This document shows, piece by piece, positions 1 through 3,000 of a DNA stretch of 25,444 nt (the first letter of the stretch is position 1; each line of letters starts with the position of its first letter). Position numbers: made by a program. The stretch lies in the IMG/VR virus record IMGVR_UViG_2698536681_000003; one strand, given 5' to 3'. This DNA is from a virus. Lineage: Duplodnaviria > Heunggongvirae > Uroviricota > Caudoviricetes.

Positions 1-3000
1 GGTTATCGCTCGCCACGGGAATATCTGCGGCAGCGGGCTTGTAATGGGTTAAGTGATAACAGATGTCTGGAAATATAGGGGCAAATCCAATCGTCGCCGT
101 ATTCCCGTATTAACAGAGACCGTAGCCCGACGGGGAACTCCTTCTGCGCGAGTGTGCGGGAATAATCAAAAACGATGCACACCGGGGTTACCGGGTACAC
201 ATATTTCATCATGCCAGCGAGTCCGGTTCTGGCACGGAAGAAACCGGACGTTATGATTTAGTGCGGAAATATTTGTGTAGTGTTCTGTATGTTCTCAGTA
301 AAGAGTAATGAATTATCAAAGGTATAGTAATACCTTTTGTTTTCGTGGATATTTGTAATCCATCTGAAAACCCCTGCTGTAGCAAGATTTTTCCTGTATT
401 CGTAAAATGATAACTCTCCTGATTTGAATCCTTTTAAGGTGGCTTCTATAAGGCATTTATTTTTTGAAAATCTTACATTTACAACCTTACCCTGTCCTTT
501 TATTAAAACCGTATTATCGTTTTCAAGAACAAGATGAATATTCTCTGTGGCTAAATAGTAAATGTAATGTGAGACATTGTGACGTTTTAGTTCAGAATAA
601 AACCAGTGATAGTTTAAATTATTTCGCACTTTATCGAATATTTGTTTAAAAATGGCAACCTGAGCCATTGTAGTACCTTCCATGTGATATGAGGGGGCGT
701 AGTCTGCACGATTATCTAAATTGCTTCAATCTGGTCTAACCTGTTTTCTGAGCAATTCAGTAATGTCACTCTTTTCTTTGTTTGCTTCAGGCGAAACTCT
801 TTTTTCTGAGCACAGTCTCCGGCGGCAGGCTTCAATGACCCAGGCTGAGAAATTCCCGGACCCTTTTTGAACAAGAGCGATGTTAATTTGTTCAATCATT
901 TGGTTAGGAAAGCGGATGTTGCGGGTTGTTGTTCTGCGGGTTCTGTTCTTCGTTGACATGAGGTTGCCCTGTATTCAGTGTCGCTGATTTGTATTGTCTG
1001 AAGTTGTTTTTACGTTAAGTTGATGCAGATCAATTAATACGATACCTGCGTCATAATTGATTATTTGACGTGGTTTGATGGCGTAGATGCACGTTGTGAC
1101 ATGTAGATGATAATTATTATCATTTTGCGGGTCCTTTCCGGCGATCCGACAGGTTACGGGGCGGAAGGCGCGCGGGTTTTCGCTATTTATGACAATTTTC
1201 CGGTTTAAGGCGTTTCCGTTCTTCTTCGCCGTAACCTAATGTTTTTATTTAAAACACCCCCTGAAAAGAAAGGAAACGACAGGTGCTGAAAACGGGCTTT
1301 TTGGCCTCTGTCGTTTCCTTTCTCTGTTTTTGTCCGTGGAATGAACAATGGAAGTCAACAAAAAGCAGCTGGCTGACATTTTCGGTGCGAGTATCCGTAC
1401 CATTCAGAACTGGCAGGAACAGGGAATGCCCGTTCTGCGAGGCGGTGGCAAGGGTAATGAGGTGCTTTATGACTCTGCCGCCGTTATAAGATGGTATGCC
1501 GAAAGGGATGCTGAAATTGAGAACGAAAAGCTGCGCCGGGAAGTTGAAGAACTGCGGCAGGCCAGCGAGACAGATCTCCAGCCAGGGACTATTGAGTACG
1601 AACGCCATCGACTTACGCGTGCGCAGGCCGACGCACAGGAGCTGAAAAATGCCAGAGACTCCGCTGAAGTGGTGGAAACCGCATTCTGTACTTTCGTGCT
1701 GTCGCGGATCGCAGGTGAAATTGCCAGTATTCTCGACGGGATCCCCCTGTCGGTGCAGCGGCGTTTTCCGGAACTGGAAAACCGACATGTTGATTTCCTG
1801 AAACGGGATATCATCAAAGCCATGAACAAAGCAGCCGCGCTGGATGAACTGATACCGGGGTTGCTGAGTGAATATATCGAACAGTCAGGTTAACAGGCTG
1901 CGGCATTTTGTCCGCGCCGGGCTTCGCTCACTGTTCAGGCCGGAGCCACAGACCGCCGTTGAATGGGCGGATGCTAATTACTATCTCCCGAAAGAATCCG
2001 CATACCAGGAAGGGCGCTGGGAAACACTGCCCTTTCAGCGGGCCATCATGAATGCGATGGGCAGCGACTACATCCGTGAGGTGAATGTGGTGAAGTCTGC
2101 CCGTGTCGGTTATTCCAAAATGCTGCTGGGTGTTTATGCCTACTTTATAGAGCATAAGCAGCGCAACACACTTATCTGGTTGCCGACGGATGGTGATGCC
2201 GAGAACTTTATGAAAACCCACGTTGAGCCGACCATCCGCGATATTCCGTCGCTGCTGGCGCTGGCTCCGTGGTATGGCAAAAAGCACCGGGATAACACGC
2301 TCACTATGAAGCGTTTTTCCAATGGTCGTGGCTTCTGGTGCCTGGGCGGTAAAGCGGCAAAAAACTACCGTGAAAAGTCGGTGGATGTGGCGGGTTATGA
2401 TGAACTTGCTGCCTTTGATGAGGATATTGAACAGGAAGGCTCTCCGACGTTCCTTGGCGACAAACGTATTGAAGGCTCGGTCTGGCCAAAGTCCATCCGT
2501 GGCTCCACGCCCAAAGTGAGAGGCACCTGCCAGATTGAGCGTGCAGCCAGTGAATCCCCGCATTTTATGCGTTTTCATGTTGCCTGCCCGCACTGCGGGG
2601 AGGAGCAGTATCTTAAATTTGGCGACAAAGAGACGCCGTTTGGCCTCAAATGGACGCCGGATGACCCCTCCAGCGTGTTTTATCTCTGCGAGCATAATGC
2701 CTGCGTCATCCGCCAGCAGGAGCTGGACTTTACTGATGCCCGTTATATCTGCGAAAAGACCGGGATCTGGACCCGTGATGGCATTCTCTGGTTTTCGTCA
2801 TCCGGTGAAGAGATTGAGCCACCTGACAGTGTGACCTTTCACATCTGGACAGCGTACAGCCCGTTCACCACCTGGGTGCAGATTGTCAAAGACTGGATGA
2901 AAACGAAAGGGGATACGGGAAAACGTAAAACCTTCGTAAACACCACGCTCGGTGAGACGTGGGAGGCGAAAATTGGCGAACGTCCGGATGCTGAAGTGAT

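Follow-up and report, generated by a model that had tools for sequence, protein, structure and literature searches.

Are two small genes that sit side by side near the cos site of a lambda-like phage the halves of one functional module, or are they independent genes that happen to be neighbors? The question is raised by one end of a 25,444-nucleotide (nt) stretch of viral DNA (Caudoviricetes; IMG/VR record IMGVR_UViG_2698536681_000003), referred to here in its full length as the window, which is a lambda-like phage or prophage. An earlier reading of the sequence, the original prediction, had placed two minus-strand open reading frames (ORFs) 57 nt apart at this point and took them for a regulator-plus-effector pair of the toxin-antitoxin or defense kind. 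Both ORFs are present with that spacing, and in a 99.9%-identical Escherichia coli prophage RefSeq gives them the same boundaries and 100%-identical proteins under the names "YlcI/YnfO family protein" and "DUF1398 domain-containing protein". The two genes are as follows.

258..668, minus strand: DUF1398 gene of the YbcV/YdfO type, 136 amino acids (aa), AT-rich
726..959, minus strand: ylcI/ynfO-type gene, 77 aa, YlcI/YnfO family (DUF3950), by Pfam, NCBIfam and RefSeq

Beyond them lie cos (approximately 1159-1170), the start of Nu1 at 1348 and the start of the large terminase gene at 1868. In our assessment these are probably two adjacent, independent genes, a YlcI regulator or DNA binder fixed at cos and an optional DUF1398 moron, and not a module. 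Family membership, purifying selection, the separability of the genes and the boundaries of the DUF1398 cassette carry this interpretation, together with the dispensability of the DUF1398 gene as known from the literature.

Gene families and location

The 77-aa protein is basic, with an isoelectric point of 10.9, and the 136-aa protein is rich in Asn (15 residues) and Tyr (10 residues), both as first described. Profile searches bear out the families that the original prediction had named. The smaller protein exceeds the cut-offs of both models for its family, scoring 72.8 bits against Pfam PF13132 (DUF3950; cut-off 25) and 35.2 bits against NCBIfam NF041551 (YlcI_YnfO_N; cut-off 30), and it matches phrog_949 with E=6e-33. 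The larger protein scores 147 bits against Pfam DUF1398 (PF07166; cut-off 22) over profile positions 1-119 of 119, and it belongs to the YdfO fold by its match to 2HH8, the nuclear magnetic resonance (NMR) structure of YdfO, at E=1e-69.

The same families, in the same strand arrangement and likewise between the lysis genes and cos or nohA-nohD, are found in the K-12 prophages Qin (YnfO-YdfO) and DLP12 (YlcI, YbcW, YbcV) and in lambda itself (lambdap78 plus a 64-aa ORF). The original prediction had set the locus apart from lambda, where it placed bor at this site; the contrast is mistaken because lambda has homologues of both genes. The layout of the window is that of Qin, with the 77-aa YnfO form directly upstream of DUF1398, and differs from that of lambda and DLP12, in which ybcW lies between the genes and YlcI has 64 aa. 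Its smaller protein is 97% identical to YnfO and its DUF1398 protein about 76% identical to YdfO and lambda p78, the DUF1398 allele of the window being a distinct variant with approximately 24% protein divergence from YdfO and YbcV. Public databases already contain both families, the exact proteins and a structure, and the location is a standard one, lambda included. The present analysis adds that the two genes are decoupled, and it further contributes the boundaries of the cassette, controlled support for a ribbon-helix-helix (RHH) fold and a few annotation corrections.

Co-occurrence of the two genes

A survey of lambdoid prophages shows that the genes are not obligately paired. YlcI is found in 155 records of the phage collection and DUF1398 in 43. 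Among 5426 complete E. coli genomes, in which ylcI was counted by its 5' part, that part occurs at 9861 places in 4184 genomes, and phage-type DUF1398 occurs in 3011. Copies of ylcI without DUF1398 were found beside Rha, iss/bor or PerC genes, in each case some 200 bp to the left of cosN, and in the cos loci examined ylcI is divergent from the small terminase gene. Conversely, DUF1398 and ybcW are found without ylcI beside a different terminase type. In lambda, HK629 and DLP12-type loci the two genes are physically parted by ybcW (lambdap79) on the opposite strand, between DUF1398 and a 64-aa ylcI.

L001 2364-2570, plus strand: lambdap79/ybcW, which separates the two genes in lambda and is absent from the window

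Knock-down of lambdap79 in lambda by CRISPR interference (CRISPRi) was scored as essential, a result that the authors of that study attributed to polarity (PMC10695390).

DUF1398 also exists well away from phages. A diverged chromosomal paralogue, ycgX, is present in nearly all of the complete E. coli genomes surveyed, and solitary chromosomal copies occur in unrelated contexts in Kluyvera, Klebsiella, Raoultella, Pseudocitrobacter, Citrobacter and the flavobacterium Epilithonimonas. None of the solitary chromosomal genes examined has a YlcI-like or RHH neighbor. Since DUF1398 stands alone in core genomes, it is not a toxin dependent on YlcI as its antitoxin.

These observations bear directly on a type II toxin-antitoxin pair, in which YlcI would be an RHH antitoxin and autorepressor whose tail neutralizes a DUF1398 toxin. 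The gene order and small sizes fit such a pair, as do the RHH-like N-terminus of YlcI, its variable tail, for which a helix is predicted at 61-72, and the fact that the 77-aa tail form is the one directly upstream of DUF1398. We nonetheless hold this to be very improbable. Most ylcI copies have no DUF1398, DUF1398 does without any YlcI-like gene in nearly all E. coli and in other genera, and lambda-type loci not only split the genes with an opposite-strand gene but combine DUF1398 with the 64-aa tail. The last codons of the 77-aa tail are simply the region upstream of DUF1398 read in frame. The YdfO structure came from structural genomics, for which the protein was presumably overexpressed in E. 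coli, and this would speak against strong toxicity. Family searches point the same way. Against Pfam, the DUF1398 protein matches DUF1398 only, with HEPN_AbiA_CTD below threshold at 15.8 bits (cut-off 27), and against the 5027 models of PADLOC-DB v2, YlcI has no match and DUF1398 only Csx23 at noise level (E=0.025, 12.6 bits). Obligate toxin-antitoxin linkage was thus found in neither the phage records, the E. coli genomes nor the chromosomal contexts, and both a toxin-antitoxin pair and a two-gene defense module were rejected on co-occurrence, context and the absence of family matches. The layout that had been proposed for the pair is therefore left unsupported.

The lambda forms of YlcI and DUF1398 also turn up together on many contigs or "plasmids" of 3.3-3.6 kb assigned to Staphylococcus, Xanthomonas, Acinetobacter and Klebsiella, and on 48.5-kb "plasmids" of Salmonella and Stenotrophomonas. 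Contamination of sequencing projects by lambda control DNA is the probable explanation.

The DUF1398 cassette

How the larger gene came to lie beside ylcI can be read from the points at which related loci part company. In two loci with ylcI and no DUF1398 (L003 and L004), homology to the window is confined to 90-189 and to the part from 797 on, and some 100 bp separate the two matching segments. Because such prophages match only these flanks, window positions ~190-796 behave as an insertion. Lambda-type loci match at 89-742 and again at 797-1347, with homology broken at 743-796; since the first of these matches runs to 742, the 74 nt 5' of the DUF1398 start travel with the gene. Conservation of this upstream region does not depend on whether the next gene is ylcI or ybcW. 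The features of the cassette are the following.

190..796, minus strand: DUF1398 cassette, an insertion/deletion relative to ylcI prophages without DUF1398 (locus comparison)
669..746, minus strand: conserved DUF1398 upstream region, kept whether ylcI or ybcW is upstream
676-681, minus strand: Shine-Dalgarno sequence GGAAGG, within the upstream region
738..711, minus strand: putative sigma-70-like site TAGACC-16-GATAAT (promoter scan, 9/12)
745..729, minus strand: PdhR-type box AACAGGTTAGACCAGAT, the same sequence as published sites

The published sites are those recovered for ybcV and ydfO by genomic SELEX with PdhR, which have the same sequence as AACAGGTTAGACCAGAT (PMC7660256). The search for a terminator past the end of DUF1398 gave no credible candidate: for the hairpin at 213-241, z=-0.57, and it lacks a T-run.

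The AT-richness first noted for the larger gene is clear, with a GC content of 0.30-0.33 over 300-700 as opposed to 0.52-0.59 in the terminase genes. Presence or absence at one site (~190-796) is thus combined with deviant composition (GC 0.31 versus 0.55), as in a moron, and the separate origin that had been suggested for this gene agrees with both its foreign composition and its insertion-like behavior. The cassette resembles lambdoid morons such as bor and lom, in the sense of Hendrix and colleagues, in that related prophages either have it or lack it at one and the same site, in its base composition, in its own putative upstream control region and in its orientation against the late operon, but unlike them it lacks a clear intrinsic terminator. 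Judged from sequence, the junction fits a moron cassette dropped beside a resident gene, with the tail of YlcI altered in the event. DUF1398 would then be an optional AT-rich moron cassette, inserted downstream of ylcI with its own upstream control including the PdhR-type box, and the changed YlcI tail would be a by-product of this insertion in some lambdoids.

The DUF1398 protein

Three observations support a start at 668 over the alternative ATG683: GGAAGG lies 7 nt upstream of the former, the latter has no Shine-Dalgarno sequence, and ATG683 is out of frame in lambda-type alleles through a 1-nt indel. Alleles of the gene show dN/dS of 0.19-0.37 at dS of 0.4-0.67, and the sequence is incomplete in only 2 of 24, one of them apparently disrupted and the other ending at a contig edge. 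The fetched loci on which these counts are based hold 31 distinct ylcI and 24 distinct DUF1398 alleles, many of which differ synonymously only; the viral-contig scans gave near-identical loci only and so are good for allele counts and poor for diversity. From these patterns both ylcI and DUF1398 are taken to be functional coding sequences, and conservation as a coding sequence, which the original prediction had singled out as a check, holds for each of them through purifying selection.

The protein has no signal or membrane segment, and its conserved residues Tyr35, Tyr37, Asn43, Trp103, Arg112 and Tyr114 lie on strands of a six-stranded sheet. As a guess, these strand residues could form a surface that binds a ligand or nucleic acid, and such binding by the conserved Tyr/Trp/Arg/Asn strands may be how the protein acts. 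Relatives of DUF1398 have been labeled "head protein" (PHROG 413 and several RefSeq phage records) or "putative envelope protein". Both labels look unfounded, given the absence of a signal or membrane segment, the NMR solution structure of a homologue, and the fact that the lambda gene is non-essential.

Published data show that the lambda gene is dispensable for plaque formation and lysogeny. CRISPRi knock-down of lambdap78 did not reduce plating, with an efficiency of plating of 1.9 (PMC10695390), and lambda recombinants that carry ybcV::kan are viable and lysogenize (PMC3945230). As to expression, a pdhR mutant has 10-fold less ybcV mRNA (PMC7660256), and an ionic liquid induces ydfO (PMC4077768). 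The latter paper states that YdfO raises oxidative-stress resistance, but the study that it cites (PMC3105296) names YfdO and never YdfO, and we regard this role as a likely mix-up of gene names. The literature searched gives no assigned function for any member of either family, in line with the original prediction.

A function in the lysogen, against other phages or in superinfection exclusion, has to be considered for DUF1398, whether alone or aided by YlcI. In keeping with this, DUF1398 is an AT-rich insertion that lies between the lysis genes and cos, next to bor/iss in relatives, and points against the late operon, so that expression from the prophage is expected. The gene is moreover kept under purifying selection in thousands of prophages while being dispensable for the phage itself. 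Such a function is still unlikely in our view, as none of the PADLOC models is matched and no defense phenotype is reported in the literature searched. In several genera the homologues stand singly on the chromosome, outside mobile contexts, and the regulation that has been reported (PdhR, ionic liquid) is linked to metabolism or stress and not to phage. On the preferred reading of two independent genes, the DUF1398 product would be a soluble protein with a duplicated helix-helix-three-strand fold that works alone under host-controlled expression. It would be needed for neither lytic growth nor lysogeny and would not be a toxin held in check by YlcI.

The YlcI protein and its ribbon-helix-helix likeness

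YlcI falls into two parts, a near-invariant N-terminal portion and a tail that varies in both length and sequence among homologues.

810..959, minus strand: codons 1-50, basic N-terminal arm and RHH-like core (alignment, dN/dS, AlphaFold2, hhalign)
726..809, minus strand: codons 51-77, variable C-terminal tail (homologue alignment, breakpoints)
J02459 ~48109-48303 (L001 2735-2929), minus strand: lambda ylcI ORF, 64 aa, intact and unannotated

In the family alignment the core is made up of a strand, RNIRFP, a helix at 19-32, a G-S-G-N turn and a second helix at 34-52, all near-invariant, and the AlphaFold2 model places helices at the same 19-32 and 34-52. The original prediction had noted a clear RHH pattern in this protein. 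An alignment of nine RHH cores was built as a reference from sequences that were verified by Pfam as members of the Arc, RHH_1, FitA, ParD, PutA and Omega families. With hhalign, the alignment of the YlcI N-terminal domain matches these cores with P=3.9e-4, residues 12-51 falling on core positions 4-42 in the expected register. The score of 20.2 compares with 13.5 or less for the reversed alignment and 200 column-shuffled controls (z about 7), so that none of the 200 shuffled controls reaches it, although the hhalign probability of the match is only 36%. No hidden Markov model or structural search of YlcI against RHH proteins reached significance, and neither the single sequence nor its profile found a relative among PDB chains.

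The resemblance to RHH proteins (Arc/Mnt, CopG, the NikR N-domain, FitA, ParD and omega) extends to an N-I-R-F-P strand with alternating residues, a helix A, a Gly-containing turn and a helix B that starts with (N/S)-F-S, as well as to the small size and basic N-terminal arm. YlcI differs from CopG or Arc in a turn that is one residue longer, and the turn length varies among distant YlcI homologues. Taken together, the comparison suggests RHH-likeness and supports it, short of proof. The first 50 residues would most likely form an RHH dimer that binds DNA.

The tail can be traced to the neighboring DNA. The last codons and stop of the 77-aa form are the DUF1398 upstream region read in frame; because of this overlap, the tail varies with the downstream insert. 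Lambda and HK629 retain an intact 64-aa ORF that is left unannotated in their records.

Could ylcI then be no functional gene at all, its conservation reflecting cis-acting DNA beside cos? Its 5' 150 nt fall within the same highly conserved block as cos, and the missing annotation in lambda and HK629 would be consistent with this. Codons 1-50, however, show 17 synonymous and 6 non-synonymous differences from a diverged O111-type allele (dS 0.82, dN/dS 0.065), and all 31 distinct alleles have an intact ORF. Distant homologues on Klebsiella, Enterobacter and Citrobacter plasmids, at about 40% protein identity, keep IRFP...FSAWV...C, or more fully IRFP...(F/L)S(A/F)AWV..AC. The non-gene explanation, to which we assign the lowest probability of any considered, barely above nil, was rejected on these three grounds.

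On IncL/M plasmids the distant homologues are divergent from an Icd-like gene, in phage- or satellite-like remnants, and neither there nor on one IncX1 plasmid does a terminase adjoin. YlcI/YnfO proteins are also listed in capsid-forming phage-inducible chromosomal islands (PICIs) of Enterobacter (PMC13612085). The positions on IncL/M plasmids and in PICIs may be read as typical of small regulators. A Citrobacter plasmid encodes a 175-aa protein (locus L201, 676-1203, plus strand) with a YlcI-like N-terminus and a long C-terminal extension; since this fusion exists, the YlcI domain can carry other modules.

The cos side

If YlcI binds DNA, the region between its start and cosN is the obvious place to look.

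960..1158, no strand: near-invariant non-coding block from the ylcI start to cosN (six-locus alignment)
1029-1061 and 1107-1123: inverted repeats within the block
1129-1135: GGGTCCT, within the block
1159..1170, plus strand: cosN 12-nt cohesive end, variant GGGCGGAAGGCG (alignment with lambda-type loci)

The block, 199 bp in length, is 96-100% identical in six loci, among them two with an unrelated cosB and small terminase and one with diverged ylcI synonymous sites. The GGGTCCT motif is a putative cosQ. The block may serve as a control region for ylcI, act in cis as part of cos, or do both. In the interpretation that we prefer, ylcI/ynfO would be a fixed feature of the lambda-type cos region, some 200 bp left of cosN, and its product a small transcriptional regulator or site-specific DNA binder for a leftward, lysogen-oriented unit beside cos, with its target probably within this invariant stretch.

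Several points weigh against that interpretation. Upstream of ylcI the search for a leftward promoter gave nothing convincing, as the scan returned no leftward sigma-70-like site of at least 9/12 and none with relaxed criteria either, and the regulatory role of YlcI stays putative. The invariance of the block could come from cos function, or from recombination, and not from a YlcI operator; cos cutting stimulates recombination on the block side of cos (PMC3945230), which could homogenize 960-1158. Finally, in about half of cases DUF1398 immediately follows the 77-aa form, and because of this there may be co-transcription and some functional coupling. A rightward promoter-like site at 1096-1123 was taken as a chance occurrence because it is weaker, on inspection, in the aligned lambda sequence.

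The same block invites a different view of YlcI, as a trans-acting part of cos or packaging that binds left of cosN and is not a moron regulator. Such a factor could modulate cos cleavage, influence late read-through or keep foreign terminases off the prophage cos. In every locus examined, the distant plasmid homologues excepted, ylcI adjoins a lambda-type cosN; this linkage holds even where cosB and the small terminase differ, and ylcI is absent where the terminase type differs. The stretch from ylcI to cosN, with its two inverted repeats, is more conserved than ylcI synonymous sites, and the PICIs in which the family is listed have their own terminase. Still, physical adjacency alone explains the linkage, and the homologues on IncL/M and IncX1 plasmids are not beside a terminase. 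Minimal cos fragments of about 200 bp (cosQ, cosN and cosB) suffice for packaging, which also counts against a YlcI cos factor. Homogenization of this side by cos-stimulated recombination (PMC3945230) would account for its conservation as well. We see only a small chance that YlcI is such a factor, and the more specific proposal of an RHH dimer seated on the invariant block, from which it would control cos accessibility or leftward/rightward transcription as a trans-acting protein of the lambda-type cos region, is speculative and improbable.

The cohesive end of the window is itself a variant. The variant GGGCGGAAGGCG and the canonical lambda GGGCGGCGACCT, present in all other loci compared, disagree at 5 positions, and the variant was found in 12 fetched loci from 7 IMG/VR contigs as opposed to more than 100 canonical loci. 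The ends of a phage with GGGCGGAAGGCG would not anneal with lambda-type ends.

Neighboring features

A strong inverted repeat lies at 1262-1329, in the cosB/Nu1 leader, where Rfam gives spurious microRNA-family matches only; an Rfam scan of window positions 1-1500 found nothing real. At the other side of the locus, a 69-aa ORF at 3-212 on the minus strand matches, with its last 29 residues, the end of phrog_20197, a profile of unknown function (158 positions, E=2e-10). The ORF may be what is left of a truncated gene; RefSeq annotates nothing there in the near-identical prophage. Within the large terminase gene, masked bases (N) at ~3030-3400 cause the GC content to fall to 0 and the translation to show X.

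Implications

The genes ylcI and DUF1398 are among the last genes of lambda and of the K-12 cryptic prophages to lack an assigned function, and they are present in most E. coli genomes. Experiments designed around a toxin-antitoxin or defense pair would be misdirected, and the evidence favors their separate study, YlcI as a candidate DNA-binding protein linked to cos and DUF1398 as an accessory protein that stands alone and also has chromosomal relatives. Of immediate practical value is better annotation, both in correcting the unfounded "head protein" and "envelope protein" labels and in recording the unannotated ylcI of lambda. If a role for YlcI in the cos region were true, it would be a new packaging-site or prophage-safeguard factor of lambda, one that is unannotated in lambda's own genome.

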